Source: a virus (Duplodnaviria; Heunggongvirae; Uroviricota; Caudoviricetes). From it: a DNA stretch of 16,401 nucleotides. A program made the translations under genes and the position numbers. The DNA is taken from IMG/VR virus record IMGVR_UViG_3300029450_000074; one strand, written 5' to 3'. Below are positions 3,353 through 11,608 of this stretch, piece after piece; positions within the stretch are counted from its first letter, which is position 1, and the number at the start of each line of letters is the position of its first letter. The notes under the pieces were generated by a model, which searched no databases, was not told the origin of the DNA, and worked only from the letters and a program-made list of their open reading frames with translations.

Positions 3353-4386
3353 TGGGAAAGAGTAAGAAGAACCGCGCTTCGGCGACGAAACAGATCCAGC
3401 TTAAAAGTCAAACTACAGCCGAAGCATTCAGCTTCGGCGATCCCGTTCCTGTTCTGGACCGCCGAGAACTGCTGGACTATGTGGAATGCGTACAGACAGA
3501 TCGCTGGTATGAGCCGCCAGTAAGCTTTGACGGACTGGCGCGCACCTTCCGCGCTGCCGTGCATCACAGTTCACCAATTGCGGTGAAATGCAACATACTG
3601 ACCAGTACCTACATCCCTCACCCGCTGCTCAGCCAGCAGGCTTTTTCACGTTTTGTGCAGGACTATCTGGTATTTGGTAACGCCTATCTGGAGAAACGCA
3701 CGAACCGCTTCGGTGAAGTTATCGCCCTTGAGCCTGCTCTGGCAAAATATACCCGACGCGGGTTAGACCTGGATACCTACTGGTTTGTGCAATACGGTAT
3801 GACAACCCAGCCGTATCAGTTCACGAAAGGCAGCATTTTTCATCTGATGGAACCGGATATTAATCAGGAGATCTACGGCCTGCCCGGCTATCTTTCTGCC
3901 ATCCCATCCGCTTTGCTCAACGAGTCCGCCACGCTGTTCCGCCGGAAGTATTACATTAACGGTAGTCATGCAGGCTTCATCATGTACATGACCGATGCCG
4001 CGCAGAACCAGGAGGATGTGAACAACCTCCGCAATGCGATGAAAAGCGCCAAAGGACCGGGTAACTTCCGCAACCTGTTTATGTACTCGCCTAACGGCAA
4101 AAAGGATGGGCTTCAGATCATTCCTCTGTCAGAAGTCGCGGCGAAGGATGAGTTTCTAAACATCAAGAACGTGAGCCGGGATGACATGATGGCGGCGCAT
4201 CGTGTGCCACCGCAAATGATGGGGATTATGCCTAATAATGTTGGGGGATTTGGGGATGTGGAGAAGGCCAGCCGCGTATTCGTTCGTAATGAACTTATTC
4301 CGCTTCAGAGACGCTTTGAGGAGCTTAATAAATGGCTGGATAAAAACGCGATAGGGTTCACAAATTACGAATTATCGCTAGATTAG
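3352..4386 (+). CDS. Q: Portal (capsid portal/vertex) protein, P2 gpQ family
   Basis: ATG at 3352 overlaps the P stop (TGATG); GGAG 8 nt upstream; 344 aa as expected for gpQ. The ORF track start at 3349 is a TTG. Confidence 0.85.
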   Translation: MGKSKKNRASATKQIQLKSQTTAEAFSFGDPVPVLDRRELLDYVECVQTDRWYEPPVSFDGLARTFRAAVHHSSPIAVKCNILTSTYIPHPLLSQQAFSRFVQDYLVFGNAYLEKRTNRFGEVIALEPALAKYTRRGLDLDTYWFVQYGMTTQPYQFTKGSIFHLMEPDINQEIYGLPGYLSAIPSALLNESATLFRRKYYINGSHAGFIMYMTDAAQNQEDVNNLRNAMKSAKGPGNFRNLFMYSPNGKKDGLQIIPLSEVAAKDEFLNIKNVSRDDMMAAHRVPPQMMGIMPNNVGGFGDVEKASRVFVRNELIPLQRRFEELNKWLDKNAIGFTNYELSLD

Positions 4387-4395
4387 CTTCCCAAC

Positions 4396-4427
4396 AGCCG
4401 CAGAATTGCGGCTTTTCTTTTTTTGTT
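4396..4427 (+). terminator. Rho-independent terminator after Q
   Basis: Perfect 7-bp stem AGCCGCA (4396-4402) / TGCGGCT (4407-4413) with a GAAT loop, followed by the T-run tttctttttttg. Confidence 0.6.
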
Positions 4428-4446
4428 ATCGTGATATGTTTGATAC

Positions 4447-5097
4447 ATGGACATCACACTGAATCTAAAAATGAAAAAGGATAAAGCATTAGAATTTTAC
4501 GAAAAACTTTATTTCTCAGAAATTGAGAATAAAGACAAGATACATACTCGCGCTCAAGCCGAATTCGGATTAGTTGTCATTACCGCAACTATACTCACTT
4601 ATCTCGCCAAAAACACATCTTATGAATCCCACCCAAGGCTAGCTTGCCTAGTATTTTTATGTACCGCAATTTCATTTGGCTTAGTTCTTGTATCATCAAT
4701 TCTGTTGAAACAAGTCATATGGGGAAATGAATTTAAGTATTGCCCTGCACCTAAAGCATTGCATGATTATCACATAGATCTGATTAGTTACGAAGTGAAA
4801 TATAAAAAATATTGCGATGACAATGGACTTACATACGATGAAAGTTATAACCCTGATAATAAACTTTGGGAGTTTATTCATCAAGAAATCAGAGAGTGTG
4901 CTAGCTGGAACAGTAATATCAATGAGGAACGTTCCAGTAAACTATTTGAGTCAACAAAGTATCTTGTCTGGTCATGGATTCCAATTATCGCAGCAGTAGT
5001 CATATTTCTTTTAGCTGATTTAGATGCAGCATCACCGCGGAAAAATAACGCCCCTAACTATTTGATAATACCTATTGAAAATGTCAGGAGAACTTAA
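4447..5097 (+). CDS. Hypothetical membrane protein (about 3 predicted TM helices), AT-rich accessory gene
   Basis: 216-aa ORF in visibly AT-rich DNA. Hydrophobic segments FGLVVITATILTYLA, LACLVFLCTAISFGLVLVSSILL and LVWSWIPIIAAVVIFLLADL flank a soluble Cys-containing segment of about 85 aa. No clear SD at the 4447 ATG. No family recognised. Confidence 0.5.
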   Translation: MDITLNLKMKKDKALEFYEKLYFSEIENKDKIHTRAQAEFGLVVITATILTYLAKNTSYESHPRLACLVFLCTAISFGLVLVSSILLKQVIWGNEFKYCPAPKALHDYHIDLISYEVKYKKYCDDNGLTYDESYNPDNKLWEFIHQEIRECASWNSNINEERSSKLFESTKYLVWSWIPIIAAVVIFLLADLDAASPRKNNAPNYLIIPIENVRRT

Positions 5098-5234
5098 TGA
5101 CCAAACCGTTACCGCCACCACCTCCTCGGCCTACTCCACCCGCAAGAAGGATCGTTATTGAAGATGATTCAAAAGCAAGGCAACTACGAAGAGACAGAAA
5201 GGACGATAAAAATGACCGAACACAAAAATCCTAA
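5097..5234 (+). CDS. Polyproline micro-ORF 1 (45 aa): MTKPLPPPPPRPTPPARRIVIEDDSKARQLRRDRKDDKNDRTQKS
   Basis: ATG overlaps the stop of the membrane-protein gene (TAATG at 5095-5099); AGGAG at 5086-5090, 6 nt upstream. Hand-translated; below the ORF-track length cutoff. Confidence 0.35.
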   Translation: MTKPLPPPPPRPTPPARRIVIEDDSKARQLRRDRKDDKNDRTQKS

Positions 5235-5349
5235 AAAAAATGAAGCACCACCACCACCACCACCACCTAAACCGCCAATCACTCGGTTAGTTAGAGAAAG
5301 CTATGGCAATGATCCAAAAAATAGGAAAAATAAAGATGAGCAAAAATGA
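5212..5349 (+). CDS. Polyproline micro-ORF 2 (45 aa): MTEHKNPKKNEAPPPPPPPKPPITRLVRESYGNDPKNRKNKDEQK
   Basis: Internal ATG of track ORF 5158-5349; starts 23 nt before the micro-ORF 1 stop in the +1 frame; AAGGA-like SD about 8 nt upstream; reads through an A8 run at 5233-5240. Confidence 0.35.
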   Translation: MTEHKNPKKNEAPPPPPPPKPPITRLVRESYGNDPKNRKNKDEQK

Positions 5350-5443
5350 GAAATCTAATTTACCGCCGCCGCCACCACCCAGCAAGCCGCCTACCCGCCA
5401 AGTATTCGATCACGATGATACGAAGAAGAAATCAAAAAGATAA
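5336..5443 (+). CDS. Polyproline micro-ORF 3 (35 aa): MSKNEKSNLPPPPPPSKPPTRQVFDHDDTKKKSKR
   Basis: ATG at 5336 overlaps the end of micro-ORF 2 by 14 nt, again shifted +1; AGGA about 10 nt upstream. Hand-translated. Confidence 0.3.
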   Translation: MSKNEKSNLPPPPPPSKPPTRQVFDHDDTKKKSKR

Positions 5444-5476: not shown

Positions 5477-5520
5477 GAAGCGCCTAGTAACATTCTGCTA
5501 GGCGCTTCTTATTGTATTCA
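5477..5520 (+). terminator. Strong stem-loop, probable terminator closing the membrane-protein/micro-ORF unit
   Basis: Perfect 11-bp stem GAAGCGCCTAG (5477-5487) / CTAGGCGCTTC (5498-5508), 10-nt loop, then a T-rich tract ttattgtattcatttt. Confidence 0.5.
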
Positions 5521-5595
5521 TTTTCCCTGACAGCCTCAAGCTAATAACACTCGAAGATCGTCAAAAATTTATTGTACATAACCCTATTGCGCGCG

Positions 5596-5616
5596 CTCGT
5601 ATCCCCGCCACGCCTG
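5596..5616 (-). other. cos-like cohesive-end motif (P2/186-type), candidate packaging site
   Basis: Minus strand reads GGCGTGGCGGGGATACGAGCGCGCGC. The first 13 nt match the start of the 186/P2 19-nt cohesive end as I recall it (GGCG[T/A]GGCGGGGAAAGCA...), followed by a GCGCGC block as in P2. Position between Q and the replication side, and orientation pointing toward Q, fit the P2 left end. Match is from memory. Confidence 0.35.
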
Positions 5617-5637
5617 CCCGCTTTATGTAGTGGTTTT

Positions 5638-5737
5638 CATGCACCTGCATGTTCTACGTAAAAGCCCGCTAGTTCTGGCGAGCCTTAGCAAAAACGATCC
5701 TTAAACGATCATGCGATTTCATGCAGCATAGTCATGC
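5638..5737. repeat. Cluster of four TCATGC(A) direct repeats next to the cos-like motif
   Basis: TCATGC at 5638-5643, 5709-5714, 5719-5724 and 5732-5737, the last three spaced 10 and 13 nt apart. Confidence 0.3.
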
Positions 5738-5936
5738 ACTGTCTAAGAGAAGTGAAAGTCCGTATCTGAATGACCACTTGAAAAACGAAACATACAGACT
5801 TACAAAGATGAAGCTCTACTGTGAGCGAGGAACATACATAGTTGCTCTGTAATAGCCAAATTTTAAGCAGGAAATCTCTTTTTTATGACAAAACTATAAA
5901 GAAAAACAGACCGTTTCATCGCTCGATGAAAATATA

Positions 5937-7550
5937 CTACAATACTTTTCTCTCGATGGTATTTTTAATGGTCAACATATCTTTAGGAATACTTTTTTTC
6001 CCCTCTATACGTATGGTAAACACAAAAAGAATAACGGCTGATCTCACAATTTTCATGAGTTGTAAGAGCTGTTTCTCAAACTTTTCTTTCTCAATAAACC
6101 TCACCTCATCAAAAAATCCATAAGAATTATATAAATCAACTAACATGTCTTTCTCATGAATAACTAACAGTTTATGTTCTAAATCATTCCTCCATTCTTT
6201 AAAAAAAGCAAGCTCACCATTTTTATCATTCAAATCCATAGCAATACTAAACAAACCCAGCAATCCTTTATTATTTATTTTATTTATTTTAAGCTTTCTT
6301 TTTTCATCACTAATCCGCCAGAAGTTATGAAAGTATATATGTCCTCTATCTGGTTTTAAATCAAATAATTGACACAGAGCAACTGCTATTTTATCCAAGA
6401 TACCAAAGCAAGCTCTAAATGCAACCCTTAACTTCTCAACATTTTCATACAATATTTCTCCATTATACAATTCAGAATAACATACCTCCGAATCCTCATC
6501 AAAAAACTCACTATCAACCTTATATTCAAAAAACATTTTTCGTGCTAAGGAATACTCAGCTTTAAGTCTATTTAACACCATTTCCATTGGCACTATAAAA
6601 TCACCAAATACACCTTCCTCGGTGGTCGCAATAGTTATATTATCTTTAGATGACGCATAACAATTGCAATATAGCGAATGATCAGACAACATTAGATTAT
6701 TATCTATACAAAACCTCTGGTAGTTTGATAAAGTATCATACTCCTCCTGCGTGAGCCTTTCATCTGTACTTATATCCTCTATGCCATATACACATGATTC
6801 ACTCAATATACTTTCGTTGTGCTTTATTTTTCTTTGAAGAGTAACCTTCCATGAAGGAAAACATTTCCCTGACTTTATTGCACACTCATAACCTCGAATA
6901 ACTTCTTTAATCATTTTATATGTATATGTTGTAGATAATTCATTAAGCAATTCTAATGCCTCAGATCTGTTTACCCACGCCTGAGGAATTGAGTTATCAA
7001 TAGATATTGCTTGTTCATAATAATCCATTGATTCAGATATACGATATTGTTTTTTTAATACATTAGCTAGATTAACTATTAAATCAGGGGGCACCCATCC
7101 ATCTTCTTGTGAAAGTTTAAACGCTTTCCAGTAATTATTTTTTACATCATTCAGCTTAATGAAACTATCAATATCTGCATTGTCATTAGGATCAAAATCA
7201 AGAACTGCGCTCATTCCATTTGCCAAGTTATAGTAATATAAGGATTCTTTCATTATAGTCAGAAATTCATTTTTATTGTTTATAAAGATATTTAAGCCTT
7301 CCTCCGCTATATTTTTTACATTACTAAAACTTCCGATATCAATAAGATTTCCGGCCAAATTAGATAATATAATTATTCTATTTTCTTTGATTGTATTTAT
7401 CTCATCGATACCGTTAAGAATATCCTTTACATTTTTATAGGCAGAATCAAATGAACCTGCATTAATAAGATCATCTACGAACCCCATTTTTGAAACAACA
7501 TAGTTGATATCCNNNNNNNNNNNNNNNNNNNNNNAAGCTAATAATACCAA
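5937..7550 (-). CDS. Hypothetical 537-aa protein, AT-rich cargo gene; candidate anti-phage/abortive-infection protein with a C-terminal HEPN-like R-x4-H motif
   Basis: Long minus-strand ORF in strongly AT-rich DNA between cos and the tum/A module. C-terminal WRNDLEHKLLVIH contains R-N-D-L-E-H (codons verified at 6174-6191). No Walker A seen. N-terminus uncertain: track start is a TTG at 7550, an N-run (7513-7534) lies in the first codons, and the first ATG after it is at 7487. Confidence 0.6.
   Translation of the reverse strand: MVLLAXXXXXXXXDINYVVSKMGFVDDLINAGSFDSAYKNVKDILNGIDEINTIKENRIIILSNLAGNLIDIGSFSNVKNIAEEGLNIFINNKNEFLTIMKESLYYYNLANGMSAVLDFDPNDNADIDSFIKLNDVKNNYWKAFKLSQEDGWVPPDLIVNLANVLKKQYRISESMDYYEQAISIDNSIPQAWVNRSEALELLNELSTTYTYKMIKEVIRGYECAIKSGKCFPSWKVTLQRKIKHNESILSESCVYGIEDISTDERLTQEEYDTLSNYQRFCIDNNLMLSDHSLYCNCYASSKDNITIATTEEGVFGDFIVPMEMVLNRLKAEYSLARKMFFEYKVDSEFFDEDSEVCYSELYNGEILYENVEKLRVAFRACFGILDKIAVALCQLFDLKPDRGHIYFHNFWRISDEKRKLKINKINNKGLLGLFSIAMDLNDKNGELAFFKEWRNDLEHKLLVIHEKDMLVDLYNSYGFFDEVRFIEKEKFEKQLLQLMKIVRSAVILFVFTIRIEGKKSIPKDMLTIKNTIERKVL
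7513..7534. other. N-run (22 nt) inside the 5' end of the 537-aa cargo ORF
   Basis: Literal n characters in the sequence. Confidence 1.
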
Positions 7551-8048: not shown

Positions 8049-8240
8049 TCAGCTGATGACATCCATTGAGCGGTTGTATTCGTGGGTTCTGATTTTTGCC
8101 ATGAGTTCATCTGTCAGTTCAGNNNNNNNNNNCTGCAGGGCCAGCCCCTTCTCTTCATCACTACACTCACTAGCCGCTACAAGCTTAAGAAAAAAATCAA
8201 TGCGCTGGAGCTTCAAAGACTCCAAAAAATAGTCCTGCAT
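8049..8240 (-). CDS. Small ORF preceding the DinI-like gene (possible N-terminal part of a Tum-like protein); interrupted by N-run 8123-8132
   Basis: ATG at 8238-8240 with a strong AGGAGG SD; sits about 45 nt downstream of a LexA box. Combined length with the DinI-like ORF is about 145 aa; 186 Tum is about 146 aa (from memory). Confidence 0.4.
   Translation of the reverse strand: MQDYFLESLKLQRIDFFLKLVAASECSDEEKGLALQXXXXELTDELMAKIRTHEYNRSMDVIS
8123..8132. other. N-run (10 nt) inside the tum-like small ORF
   Basis: Literal n characters in the sequence. Confidence 1.
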
Positions 8241-8393: not shown

Positions 8394-10771
8394 TTAATAC
8401 AGGTTCCGCCACTTATCATCTTCCTGCAAACGCTGGTTCCGATAGAAAATACGCAGGCCTGCTCCTGACGGAATGCTGCCGCCGCGAAGGAGTAAATCGA
8501 CCTCTTTCTCGCTGCCATCAAATCCTCTGGACTTCAGTTCATAGACGAGCTGCTGTCGCTGATGATCTGTAATTCGCTGTTTGTAGTCTCTACGCCGTTT
8601 CGGTTTCACCAGGCGTAACCTTGCAGCCAGTTCCCGGCGCTCTTTTTTGTTCATATTGTGCAGGTAATCGTGCAATTCCTTGTCATCCATGCGGGTGATA
8701 TCCGTTCTGGTATCCCCATCAGCTGATTTGTCTTTCCCTTGTTGGTACAAATTTTCAGCAAGGGGACAGTTATTGCCACGAGTCCAAGGGGCGCAAGCGC
8801 CCTGATCGGCTGCCGCCTCCTGAACGTCAACGGCCTTACGAACCATTTTCCACTTCACTGCATGAGTGCAGATCTTGCCCTCTGCAATGGGTGACCAGAT
8901 GCCATAAATACGAATACCGTGATCGCCATAGGCGGTTGGCTCTTCGTTGATTTCATAAGCGGTTCTGATGAGGTGATATTTGCGGGGAACCAGTACGCCG
9001 CCCTGCTTCATGATGTAGGTGGCAAAACAACCAGCATCAGCAGCAGCCAGAATGGCATCAAGACGCGGGTTATCCAGTACCGGCGCACCTGCTTTTTTGT
9101 CACCCTGTTGCCTTGCCGCCTGACCAGCCAGCAAGCGAAGTTCACGGTAAGCCTGACGTCCCGGAATACCAAAGAAGCGGAATTGCTGAACACGATGCAG
9201 AGACGCCCAGGCATTAACGTATTCAGCGTTATCACGCAGGGATTTACCCGTTTCCTTGCTGATCTCGCCAGCCAGACCACGCCCGTCAATGTTCTTACTG
9301 ATGTATTTCGCGATGTAGCTTGTCGGCGTTCCTTTGCGCGGGTTTATCAGCTCAGATTTAAAGCGTGGACCAGTGTTATTACCCAGTTCCTCGCGGTCTT
9401 CACGGATGGCAAACTTACGCAACAATGCAGTAATGGCGCGGCGGTCTTTTTTGCGCATGAAACACAACAGGTGCCAGTGAACTGTACCGTCATGATGCGG
9501 CTCAGCCACCCGCACGCCATACCAGCGCAACTCGGCTTTGTGCATCGCCTTACGAAATGCAGCAAACATGCCGACCAGATAATCGCTGCTTTGTCTTACC
9601 GTCGCATTTGTCCAGGTTGGGTTTGGTCTGCCGTTATTGAGCGTGGAATGGAAACGTGACGGACAGGTAATGGTGTAGAAAACGGCGCAGTCACCGCGCA
9701 TTTCCGCGATAAGCTCCAGACCTTTAACACAGGCCATCATCTCATTGCGGCGGTGCGCCGGGTTGCTGCTGCTGGCGTTTACCACGTCTTCCATNNNNNN
9801 NNNNNNNNNNNNNCCTCTTCGTTCACCAGTTCATGAGAACGGAAAAACTCCAGTGACTTGCGGCGCTGCTCACGTTTATGCATCACGGCTTCATAGCTGA
9901 CATAGGGAGATGCTTTTTTGCTGACCAGGCAGACAGCACGCAACTGCTCTTCCCGCCATTCGCAACGCATCTTCCATAATTTCCGGTACCACCAGTCAGC
10001 GCACAACATACGCGCCAGCGAACCCGGAATGAGTTCATAGGGCACGGGTTTACGGCGGTTTCTTTTCCGGCGGAGTTGCTCAAACGCAGGCGGGATGACA
10101 TCCAGACGCAGGGTTTCCGCTGCCACCTTTTCCCATGTCTTGCGGATTTCTTCTGGCTTAACGTCATCGGTGACATACAAATCGCCACAAGCTGCATCAA
10201 GGCACATGCTCATATGCGCAGCTACCAGGGTGGACAGGCGTTTCACCTGATCCTGACTCATTTCAGGCAGGATCAGCAGGCCGTCCAGCCCTACATGGCT
10301 TGCCATAAAGCGAAAAGAAGTGGATAGCTGACAGTCGCGTACATGCTCCAGCCGTTCCAGACATGGCTTAATCGTCTCACGCAAATAGCGGGAATAAGCC
10401 TTTGGCCTGCCCAGGCTGCTGAAGTATTCAATACGTTGCATCAGTGGCTTGCTGATATGGGAAGGCTGGGCATTGACGTCCGCCAGAATGACCATATCTG
10501 GATTAAAACGCTGCTGCTCATGCGCCAGCTTTGCCCGACTAATGAGCTTATCCTGCTCCATTTCGCGCTGGACAGGATCACGGGATTCATTAAAGAAATA
10601 ACGCTCCCAGACCTGATCACTCAGTGCCTCGCGGCGCAGCTGTTCCTGCTCGTTATCGGCAGCGTACAGAGCGATCAGGTTTGAAAGCGCAGAAACTGAA
10701 GATTGCTCTTCTGTCTCTACGTAAGGATTGATTGCTTTTTTCTCAGCATTCCAGGAATAGCTGTAGTTCAT
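8394..10771 (-). CDS. A: Replication initiation protein, P2 gpA family (HUH rolling-circle endonuclease); reading frame interrupted at N-run 9795-9813
   Basis: Two adjacent minus-strand track ORFs (9779-10822 and 8394-9794). The downstream part carries HUH motif [10 protein letters not shown] and tandem-tyrosine motif YIAKYISK. Likely start is ATG 10771 (GGAGA SD) rather than the TTG at 10822. The two parts are in different frames across the 19-nt N-run. Confidence 0.75.
9795..9813. other. N-run (19 nt) inside replication gene A
   Basis: Literal n characters in the sequence. Confidence 1.
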
Positions 10772-10849: not shown

Positions 10850-11608
10850 TCAATTGCACCTTTTAAAATTGCGCAACGGTTTTTCAGAATGACAGCTTTC
10901 AGCTCCTTTTCCGTCANNNNNNNNNNNNNNNNNNNNNTCAGCCTCCTGAATAGCCCGCGTCAGCTCAGGATATTTGCTATTAAATTTGGGGACATTGCAG
11001 GCAAGATTTGTACTGTCGGCAGTCGCCAGTGGGTAATTTCCCAACACACGACCGTCAAGCATGCGCAAACCATGAACAGCTGTTTTGAAATTGTGTCGGC
11101 AATAAATTGCTTCAAAAGCGTCCTGCATACGACGATGCCAGTGCGCAGTTCTGATAGCCGCATATTCACCAGACGATCCAAAGCAGACACGAGGCCATTC
11201 ACGACATAGCTCGATAAGCCGATCGATTGACTCGTGCAGATGCCAGACGGGAGTTGCCTTCCCGTAGAACATTTTCGGAACTTCGTTTATCAGGGCATCA
11301 TTGTCACGTTCACCTCCGTCCACAACATCAGGAATGACAAAAAAAGCGACCTTAGGATGGTGGTAATAGTTCAGGAGCCATTTATAAAAATCACTCCAGT
11401 TAATTTTTAGCCCACGCACCCATGCAGAAAATGCGCCGTTATCAATGCCGACGACCTGAGCGTGCTGAATGGACGCCGCAATCTGATCTGGTCGTACATA
11501 GGAGACGAAAGCGCCAGCTCCGCTCACCGCAATACGATGAACGTCGCCAGCACTTCCCCAGACAGGCGTCCCATGGAAATGATGAATTCCGTGGTGCATT
11601 TCTTTCAC
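10850..11608 (-). CDS. Hypothetical 252-aa protein translationally coupled to the Dam methyltransferase; family unassigned
   Basis: Start (GTG 11606-11608 or ATG 11597-11599) overlaps or abuts the Dam stop (TGA 11605-11607). Motifs GIDNGAFSAW and VIPDVVDGG have a weak, unverified resemblance to TGT/DpdA-type signatures; no zinc-binding Cys cluster. N-run 10917-10937 lies near the C-terminus. Confidence 0.45.
   Translation of the reverse strand: MKEMHHGIHHFHGTPVWGSAGDVHRIAVSGAGAFVSYVRPDQIAASIQHAQVVGIDNGAFSAWVRGLKINWSDFYKWLLNYYHHPKVAFFVIPDVVDGGERDNDALINEVPKMFYGKATPVWHLHESIDRLIELCREWPRVCFGSSGEYAAIRTAHWHRRMQDAFEAIYCRHNFKTAVHGLRMLDGRVLGNYPLATADSTNLACNVPKFNSKYPELTRAIQEAXXXXXXXXDGKGAESCHSEKPLRNFKRCN
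10917..10937. other. N-run (21 nt) inside the Dam-coupled 252-aa ORF
   Basis: Literal n characters in the sequence. Confidence 1.

Follow-up and report, generated by a model that had tools for sequence, protein, structure and literature searches.

Three overlapping polyproline micro-ORFs behind a membrane-protein gene in a P2-like prophage of Escherichia coli: probable coupled microprotein genes and detached counterparts of a membrane-family tail

The window analysed here, i.e. the whole 16,401-nucleotide (nt; 16.4-kb) stretch of IMG/VR record IMGVR_UViG_3300029450_000074, is a P2-like prophage of Escherichia coli (E. coli), with capsid, terminase and portal genes on the left and a replication endonuclease, a Dam methylase and other early genes on the right. 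On its plus strand it carries a gene for a membrane protein of 208 amino acids (aa; 4471-5097) with three hydrophobic helices and FYEKLYF as its N-terminal signature, followed on the same strand by three short open reading frames (ORFs), each encoding a polyproline peptide, which are the subject of this report. Micro-ORF 1 (ORF1, 5097-5234) encodes 45 aa (MTKPLPPPPPRPTPPARRIVIEDD...), in which PPPPPRPTPP is followed by RRIVIEDDSK; micro-ORF 2 (ORF2, 5212-5349) encodes 45 aa from a conserved ATG at 5212 (APPPPPPPKPPITRLVRES; PPPPPPPKPP, then TRLVRES); micro-ORF 3 (ORF3, 5336-5443) encodes 35 aa (LPPPPPPSKPPTRQVFDHDD; PPPPPPSKPP, then TRQVFDHDD). ORF1 and ORF3 are unannotated. The proline runs begin at codons 6, 13 and 10, respectively, and all three peptides are devoid of Cys, of hydrophobic stretches and of signal peptides, with a net charge of +5 or +6 and 4-8 hydrophobic residues each. 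As DNA the micro-ORFs are only 60-73% alike, and over the proline codons alone.

A Shine-Dalgarno-like element lies 6-9 nt 5' of each ATG: AGGAG at 5086-5090 on the plus strand for ORF1, within AGG AGA, two consecutive Arg codons close to the 3' end of the membrane gene, AAGGA at 5199-5203 for ORF2 and AGGA at 5323-5326 for ORF3. The stop codon of the membrane gene and the start of ORF1 overlap as TAATG, and the micro-ORFs overlap one another by 23 and 14 nt. The locus is made up of four consecutive cistrons, the membrane gene and ORF1-3, joined by stop/start overlaps, and each of the micro-ORFs has a ribosome-binding site of its own. The start coordinates modulo 3 are 0, 1 and 2, so that the frame moves by +1 at each step, and runs of eight and five adenines lie at the first and second micro-ORF junction, respectively (A8 at 5233-5240, A5 at 5342-5346). 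The original prediction, made from the letters of the stretch, had described three ORFs of 45, 45 and 35 aa with polyproline cores and +1 frame steps, an own Shine-Dalgarno-like element for each and an A-run at both junctions, and all of this was verified. Runs of five CCN codons occur in six overlapping matches in the window, every one of them within ORF1-3, as compared with 0.03 expected, and none of 200 shuffled sequences reached six. The arrangement is far beyond chance, because it recurs in every relative that was examined.

Relatives were gathered via the upstream membrane protein from IMG/VR contigs, from assemblies encoding database homologues and from a metagenome scan, and the individual loci are denoted by L numbers. 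Proline-rich micro-ORFs were found 3' of the membrane gene in every relative with a 51-93% identical membrane protein (L006, L018, L007, L009, L013, L022, L028, L011/L023, L012, L025 and L024/L026), and most of these loci have three. Each unit in these relatives starts with ATG, in one instance GTG, with a Shine-Dalgarno-like element 6-11 nt upstream. In 10 of the 10 relatives listed, ORF1 has the element AGGAGA (or CGGAGA, AGGACA) together with a 1-nt stop/start overlap with the membrane gene, which takes the form TAATG, TGATG or TAGTG. The peptides fall into three orthologue groups, recognizable from the residues behind the proline run: ...PP.RR.V.EDDSK for ORF1, ...PP..R[LM]V[RQ]ES/GS for ORF2 and ...PP.R..FDHDD.KK for ORF3. 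ORF1 orthologues are present in 11 relatives and contain no stops.

The ratio of nonsynonymous to synonymous proportions (pN/pS; Nei-Gojobori, all codons pooled) was 0.49 for ORF1, 0.53 for ORF2 and 0.34 for ORF3 in the named frames, with zero stops in any sequence, and ORF3 is the most conserved of the three. The other frames, shifted or antisense, gave values of 0.87-1.85 and contained stops, with the exception of the wobble-sharing antisense frame, where a pN/pS of 0.48-0.62, again with stops, is the expected mirror effect. This substitution pattern shows three coding frames, each evidently under purifying selection in its own frame. The cassette of membrane gene and micro-ORFs was found in only six complete E. 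coli genomes, which are uninformative for selection because all are at least 99% identical; in near-identical E. coli copies, a single CCA codon of the ORF2 proline run is the sole insertion or deletion. Since the three orthologue groups are distinct and conserved, the triplication is old, and nothing in it is decayed. Thus, of the options left open by the original prediction, the three coupled peptides gain support from the ATG and Shine-Dalgarno-like element kept by each ORF and from own-frame selection on each. The decayed repeat is contradicted by the lack of stops in any orthologue, by pN/pS values below 1 and by the three distinct conserved groups.

The micro-ORFs led to a large family of membrane proteins. 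A profile search with the membrane protein recovered the window gene and 184 homologues, and when the profile was scored against every representative, the family comprised 1,862 representatives (50%-identity clusters) at E<=1e-10. Among database models the membrane protein matches only phrog_36961, with no Pfam, NCBIfam or PADLOC model, and the micro-ORF peptides have no significant match in Pfam, NCBIfam or PADLOC. Weak matches to PhoLip_ATPase_C, CR_prot_dom_plant, PRIMA1 and tolA_full (the latter with homologue P0034, E=0.027) were dismissed as compositional. The reading frame of the membrane gene is open from an ATG at 4447 (216 aa), which is not conserved in relatives, and the conserved start is the one at 4471; no clear Shine-Dalgarno element was seen 5' of it. 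In the AlphaFold2 (AF2) model of P0034 (predicted local distance difference test score 82), helices span residues 5-26, 29-47, 56-83, 94-108 and 114-171 and the tail is disordered, and a fold search with this model gave no PDB or BFVD match at E<0.001. The content of Lys plus Arg is 2.9 at the N-terminal flank versus 0.7 in the first loop, which suggests that the N-terminus is inside; the flank behind the third transmembrane helix has 2.9 as well. A conserved disulfide was considered as a further clue to topology and rejected, since the family does not conserve its Cys residues. Conservation in the family is highest in an N-terminal helix rich in aromatic residues, L-[YF]-E-K-L-Y-F-H-E-I-E (in P0001 and P0034; region 4495-4530 of the window). 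Known polyproline-binding domains use aromatic surfaces, and by analogy this helix is a candidate docking site for the microproteins.

Distant homologues of the membrane protein, with 25-35% identity, carry ...PPPPPPPPPTRLIKEGVEIVKP... as their own C-terminal tail. Most of the distant homologues are ~240 aa long compared with 208 aa in the window, and the extra 30-40 residues are the tail (e.g. ...KPVDVKGIIMTDKKPEPPKEVSPPPPPPPPPPTRLIKEGVEIVKPQQEKKDGK). Its layout is the same as that of the micro-ORFs, namely M-T-D/E-K-K, a proline run, R-x-[VI]-[KR]-[EGD] and a charged end, and the E. coli membrane protein ends exactly where the tail of the homologues starts (YLIIPIENVRRT aligned with EVVIVKPVDVKG). 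A scan of one genome per species yielded a single distant locus, L010 from Campylobacterota, in which a 25% identical membrane protein is followed by one micro-ORF, MSNNDETPATPKESPPPPPPRHRRGYVKPPKKK, that overlaps the membrane stop codon as ATGA. In a tolerant census of distant loci, at least one polyproline unit was present in 57 of the 58 informative non-redundant loci. An in-frame tail was found in 21 loci (19 of them also with one separate micro-ORF), one separate micro-ORF in 26, two in eight and three or four in two; the remaining locus, L097, has none and its membrane ORF is truncated. Across ~90 loci, in-frame runs of at least five prolines were counted 125 times on the strand of the membrane gene and never on the other strand. 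The census shows the link between polyproline units and the membrane protein to be nearly obligate.

The unique microproteins of the ~90 loci number 108, with a median of 40 aa, and 95 of them are preceded by a Shine-Dalgarno-like element. Their proline run starts 3-21 codons after the ATG (median 8) and is most commonly 8-10 residues long. In 107 of the 108, an Arg within 12 residues after the run opens the sequence x-[VI]-[KR]-[EGD], and the shared motif reads M-[STA]-[KND]-x-K ... P(5-12) ... R-x-[VI]-[KR]-[EGD]. ORF1-3 have the hallmarks of the module: a membrane homologue directly upstream on the same strand, an ATG with a Shine-Dalgarno element, a length within 28-52 aa and at least five prolines. 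TRLVRES of ORF2 agrees exactly with the Arg motif, and RRIVIEDD of ORF1 and TRQVFDHDD of ORF3 fit it except for the K/R position. A DH(D/G)D-type motif after the Arg, as in ORF3, recurs in the distant single micro-ORFs of L111, L029 and L030.

Furthermore, 20 of 22 non-redundant genes with an in-frame tail have an ATG 6-14 codons before the run, and in 19 of these 20 a Shine-Dalgarno-like element precedes it. The background is 10.6% of codons, and some of the internal elements are as strong as AAGGAGG. As ATG and element occur together far above background, the in-frame tail is probably also made alone, as a nested in-frame microprotein. Homologues with in-frame tails and internal starts were seen at L035-L074 and others, e.g. 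L050, L060 and L065. The membrane family thus shows repeated changes between fused and split forms of the polyproline unit: the partner is nearly always present, as a tail, as a probable nested gene or as one to three separate genes, in a large family without a database model.

From these comparisons, we consider it likely, and hold with good confidence, that ORF1-3 are separate, translationally coupled genes for basic polyproline microproteins of 35-45 aa, paralogous to one another, and the detached and triplicated counterpart of the tail or micro-ORF of the membrane family. In this family ORF1-3 thus represent the split-off, triplicated form of a near-universal partner element. As far as function can be inferred, the element would be a small protein that partners a membrane protein within the cargo of a mobile element.

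Bacterial ribosomes stall at three or more prolines in a row if EF-P does not help (PMC11388002, PMC8129111). Ribosomes that finish an upstream gene of the cassette might re-initiate at the next start or expose it. Stalls near the start codon limit output, or block further initiation, most strongly. The supply of the peptides, with their long proline runs close to the ATG, would then depend strongly on EF-P and on translation capacity, and synthesis of the membrane domain would not; three copies may raise and buffer this supply. The peptides could act on the membrane protein as detachable tails or regulators supplied in trans. Each might be a stiff rod of polyproline that presents the R-x-V-K/R-E/G/D motif, or else a segment with an inhibitory or regulatory effect. 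The membrane effector, as conflict or defence cargo, might thereby be held in check or tuned. With 5-12 prolines a few codons from the start, such cistrons should be very strongly dependent on EF-P and would offer a natural test bed for the use of polyproline and EF-P.

A bolder extension of this scheme, which we regard as rather unlikely, is that polyproline serves as a translation-capacity fuse in a widespread conflict system, in which the membrane effector is freed when the peptides fail. The membrane domain would be made regardless, and the restraining tail or microproteins (in one to three copies) only if ribosomes with EF-P pass the 5-12 prolines. Infection or stress that slows elongation would leave the peptides exhausted or the in-frame tail unfinished, so that the effector would be released and the cell stopped. 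Genes with an in-frame tail would additionally encode the nested microprotein from the internal start.

Several observations weigh against the interpretation of ORF1-3 as regulatory partners of a membrane effector in conflict or defence cargo. In L028, PQPPQPP or TPTPPTPP replace the pure proline runs in two of three units, and selection may therefore act on the structure of the proline segment in place of stalling, or on both alike. The tail modelled as disordered in P0034 fits a linear-motif or rod function and gives no interface. With three helices, the two termini of the protein come to lie on opposite sides of the membrane. If the N-terminus is inside, the in-frame tail would lie in the periplasm, while the free peptides have no signal sequence and must stay in the cytoplasm; the topology is ambiguous, because the flank behind the third helix is also rich in Lys and Arg. 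Moreover, no component of the module matched a known defence system in PADLOC-DB v2 or a Pfam family (SLATT, S_4TM and similar), and Table S5 of Rousset 2022 lists loci with the ORF2 product (WP_061090207) only as 'hypothetical'. The assignment of the module to conflict or defence cargo would come from its gene neighbourhood, by association only.

Translation itself might be the function, with the micro-ORFs as cis-acting stalling cistrons in which EF-P-dependent pauses tune the stability of the mRNA or the output of the membrane gene. Such a role would suit the position of the proline run, always 3-21 codons from the ATG, and the overlaps of the ORFs with each other and with the end of the membrane gene. 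However, the residues behind the run, which are unmade during a proline pause, are conserved (R-x-[VI]-[KR]-[EGD] in 107 of 108 microproteins, FDHDD-type C-termini), pN/pS is below 1 over the whole peptides with all codons pooled, and downstream of the micro-ORFs lies a terminator and not a same-strand gene. We consider this explanation clearly unlikely.

The first peptide had been noted for a loose resemblance to ribosome-targeting proline-rich antimicrobial peptides, and the three products might accordingly be imagined as toxins of this type, made in the cell to shut down translation, for instance that of an infecting phage. The peptides are indeed basic and proline-rich. The resemblance itself comes down to the hexapeptide PRPTPP, which we take to be common to ORF1 and pyrrhocoricin, and orthologues have Q, P or K in place of its Arg (PQPTPP, PPPTPP, PPKPP). 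The signature of the module is an uninterrupted proline run followed by R-x-V-K/R-E/G/D; the repeated PRP/RPP with spaced Arg typical of oncocin, pyrrhocoricin, Bac7 and apidaecin was not found, nor was a precursor with a signal peptide. In addition, an obligate link to a membrane protein, often as an in-frame fusion, misfits a free inhibitor of the ribosome, and the toxin reading appears very unlikely.

Still less probable is a single proline-rich protein of ~115 aa, or a long-tailed form of the membrane protein, made by programmed +1 frameshifts or by transcriptional slippage on A-runs. It was suggested by the A8 and A5 runs and the +1 step at each junction of the window, and the first polyproline unit is in frame with the membrane protein in distant homologues. 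However, the A8 run is confined to the window and the 93% identical relative L006, where it forms Lys-Lys codons of ORF2, and is absent in L018, L007, L009, L013, L011, L012 and L025; the junctions of relatives read, for example, ccTAAagcacc (L018), aaaaTAAacc (L007), aagTAAtcag (L013) and ATGActg (L011). The frame steps are +1,+1 in the window clade and L012, +2,+1 in L011 and L023, and 0,+1 in L028, where two units share one frame with a stop between them; in L025 the units do not overlap. The overlaps are 23/14, 20/14, 17/14, 8/8 or 4/8 nt, or are replaced by a 5-nt gap. These comparisons show a frame relation that is free to vary. None of the three marks of frameshifting or slippage, i.e. 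a conserved slippery site, a fixed frame relation and the lack of an own start and ribosome-binding site, was found: all units come with an ATG and a Shine-Dalgarno-like element of their own. A merged ORF spanning the three units was found in no relative or locus; a single uninterrupted gene in related prophages, which had been named as the sign of a sequencing or frameshift artefact, was looked for and seen in none, and the arrangement is thus not an artefact. Because frame steps, overlaps and A-runs vary between relatives, we exclude a fusion by frameshifting or slippage, to which we grant hardly any probability. The locus resembles dnaX, prfB and the phage tail chaperone genes G/GT in that the frames of the window are offset by +1 and homopolymeric A-runs lie at the junctions, and it differs from them in having neither a conserved slippery site nor a conserved offset and in the own initiation signals of its downstream frames.

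The reading least likely of all, close to negligible, takes the plus strand as non-coding, whether as a repeat in decay, as a (CCN)n element of the DNA close to cos or as the complement of real antisense poly-glycine ORFs. The antisense ORFs are open in several relatives and the wobble-sharing antisense frame has the low pN/pS given above. However, stops interrupt the antisense frames of some relatives (4-12 per set), their starts are not conserved, and codons rich in K, E and P are expected to leave a frame open on the opposite strand. Read in the sense direction, the units are homologous to tails that longer proteins carry in frame, and they have conserved ATG and Shine-Dalgarno-like elements; the region has no Rfam match and consists of units alike as DNA over the proline codons only. 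The antisense ORFs of the window, at 5184-5282 and 5287-5385 on the minus strand, encode poly-glycine and hydrophobic sequence, and the stops and missing conserved starts mark them as a by-product of the sense codons.

The reading of ORF1-3 as coupled partner genes of the membrane protein was also considered in view of known systems. Phage 'moron' cassettes share with the locus a promoter-like element, a terminator, low GC content, a variable region of a temperate phage and a Shine-Dalgarno element inside the upstream gene with a TAATG overlap; unlike them, it has three successive paralogous genes of 35-45 aa, each with 5-7 consecutive prolines, and its module is not phage-specific. Bacterial gasdermins are membrane effectors kept inactive by a short C-terminal peptide (bioRxiv 10.1101/2021.06.07.447441). 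Gasdermins and small-protein antitoxins of membrane toxins resemble the module in combining a membrane protein with a short C-terminal segment, in cis or in trans, and as in the case of gasdermins the module occurs in defence islands and has caspase-like proteases next to it in two loci. The likeness is one of gene layout alone, for the module protein is integral and helical, without the gasdermin fold or a significant PDB or BFVD match, and a protease neighbour occurs in only two of ~90 module loci, within complete type IV Thoeris systems. Rz1/LysC o-spanins are likewise small proline-rich products of overlapping frames in temperate phage genomes; however, the micro-ORF peptides have no Cys, lipobox or signal peptide, their prolines are contiguous and not scattered, and the ORFs lie between Q and cos, outside the lysis cassette and not embedded in an i-spanin gene, the membrane gene upstream of them being of a different family. 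EF-P-dependent polyproline proteins of the CadC type share the proline runs that stall ribosomes, and differ in that the runs of the module are much longer, with 5-12 prolines, and lie in microproteins within a few codons of the start. TonB and TolA similarly have a membrane anchor followed by a proline-rich rod, but the module contains no TonB/TolA C-terminal domain and no ExbBD/TolQR partner, and its weak tolA_full match is compositional. A literature search on polyproline microproteins, be it in prophages or together with a membrane partner, gave nothing relevant, and 'The Cryptic Bacterial Microproteome' mentions neither proline nor prophages. Thus, a module of polyproline microproteins and a membrane protein appears to be undescribed.

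Outside P2-like prophages, the membrane gene is often solitary on mobile elements, such as a prophage-like region in Methylovorus and a TrwC/integrase element in Geomonas, and the module is also found in distant bacteria, on their chromosomes, in integrative conjugative elements and in defence islands. Neighbours with defence functions include S_4TM, AAA_15 with an OLD-TOPRIM protein, an Eco57I-type methylase (restriction-modification) and PIN_12. In two loci the module adjoins a ThsB-type TIR protein and a Peptidase_C14 caspase, the components of type IV Thoeris (L010, 2900-4274; L040, 1125-2491), with different gene orders and 49% identical caspases. A functional link of the module to caspase and TIR was rejected: the pair forms a complete type IV Thoeris system and is absent from the other ~90 loci, which indicates co-location in defence islands. 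The type IV Thoeris caspase has been reported to be arginine-specific, and the near-invariant Arg behind the proline run of the microproteins may coincide with this by chance. Locus L040 recurs as L041-L043, i.e. the same locus is present four times at an exact spacing of 24,878 base pairs (bp) on JGI24728J21555_1000036 (95,348 bp), most simply explained as a concatemeric assembly of a circular element of ~24.9 kb. Besides the TIR and caspase genes, this element has a C-5 DNA methylase, a micro-ORF and a membrane gene that includes the tail in frame.

In P2, cos lies between gpA and gpQ, and the gpA-gpQ region is a defence hotspot (Rousset 2022, PMC9122126). The cassette of the window stands beside this cos-proximal hotspot, and relatives adjoin genes of type IV Thoeris, of the type of the cyclic oligonucleotide-based anti-phage signalling system (CBASS) and of the OLD type, which makes it a small, clonable candidate for anti-phage activity or exclusion.

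The portal gene Q stops at 4386 and is followed by a hairpin with a T-run (4396-4421, plus strand; 7-bp stem with five GC pairs, then TTTCTTTTTT), the hairpin proper at 4396-4413, which closes the terminase-portal (P-Q) late operon and marks the left edge of the inserted cassette. A low-GC island starts after this terminator: the GC content of the membrane gene and the three micro-ORFs is ~35-43% versus ~52-62% in the terminase and portal genes upstream. Directly 3' of the T-run, the element TGATATGTT at 4431-4439 on the plus strand, ~30 nt 5' of the start of the membrane gene, resembles a promoter of the extended -10 type, and its columns TGnTATGTT are invariant in an alignment of seven relatives, including the distant L012 (53% protein identity); a promoter function is inferred from this likeness. 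After ORF3 the cassette is closed by an intrinsic-terminator-like hairpin at 5477-5518 on the plus strand, with a 13-bp stem (5477-5508) and a T-rich tail. With a promoter-like element in front and a terminator behind ORF3, the membrane gene and the three micro-ORFs would form a complete unit of promoter, genes and terminator, placed between Q and cos. On the right, the insertion is bounded by the cos-proximal segment common to P2-like phages (5583-5740), which among the matches listed is 92-95% identical to Escherichia and Klebsiella P2-like phages and matches 85 records overall. A megablast search of the phage collection with the cassette found nothing, and Rfam gave no match for the micro-ORF region.

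The cargo across cos varies between the E. coli copies, with a HEPN_LA2681-TPR gene in the window, two hypothetical genes in strain WS0115A and nothing in strain 639, and the cassette is therefore independent of it. The HEPN_LA2681 gene of the window (5937-7550, minus strand, 537 aa) combines a TPR region with HEPN_LA2681 as its C-terminal domain (E=1.9e-38). HEPN_LA2681 recurs in the table of the P2 hotspot with various partners (AAA_15/21, KAP_NTPase) (Rousset 2022, PMC9122126); in the window the gene stands alone. Four runs of N, i.e. masked or unknown bases, are present in the window (7513-7534, 8123-8132, 9795-9813 and 10917-10937), all of them outside the cassette, and one of them breaks the N-terminal part of the HEPN gene.

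In the two E. coli genomes inspected (WS0115A and 639), PGAP annotated neither ORF1 nor ORF3, and their exact products are absent from a collection of 15 billion proteins. The product of ORF2 is annotated in databases as a 'hypothetical' protein of 58-64 aa, in the PGAP form with 61 aa from an ATG at 5164 that is not conserved in relatives, and its annotated start is probably wrong. Thus two of the three genes were never annotated and the third was probably mis-started, which illustrates that overlapping genes of fewer than 50 codons are missed even in E. coli prophages. A 479-aa 'representative' of the ORF2 protein cluster was rejected as an unrelated clustering artefact. Records from E. coli, Salmonella and Klebsiella contain ORF2 products that are identical but for the number of prolines in the run, from 4 to 11 Pro, so that rod length may be a trait that changes rapidly. 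The (CCA)n tract of ORF2 (5248-5268) behaves like an in-frame microsatellite, and one CCA (3 nt) is deleted in an E. coli genome (L002) and in an IMG/VR viral contig (L003).

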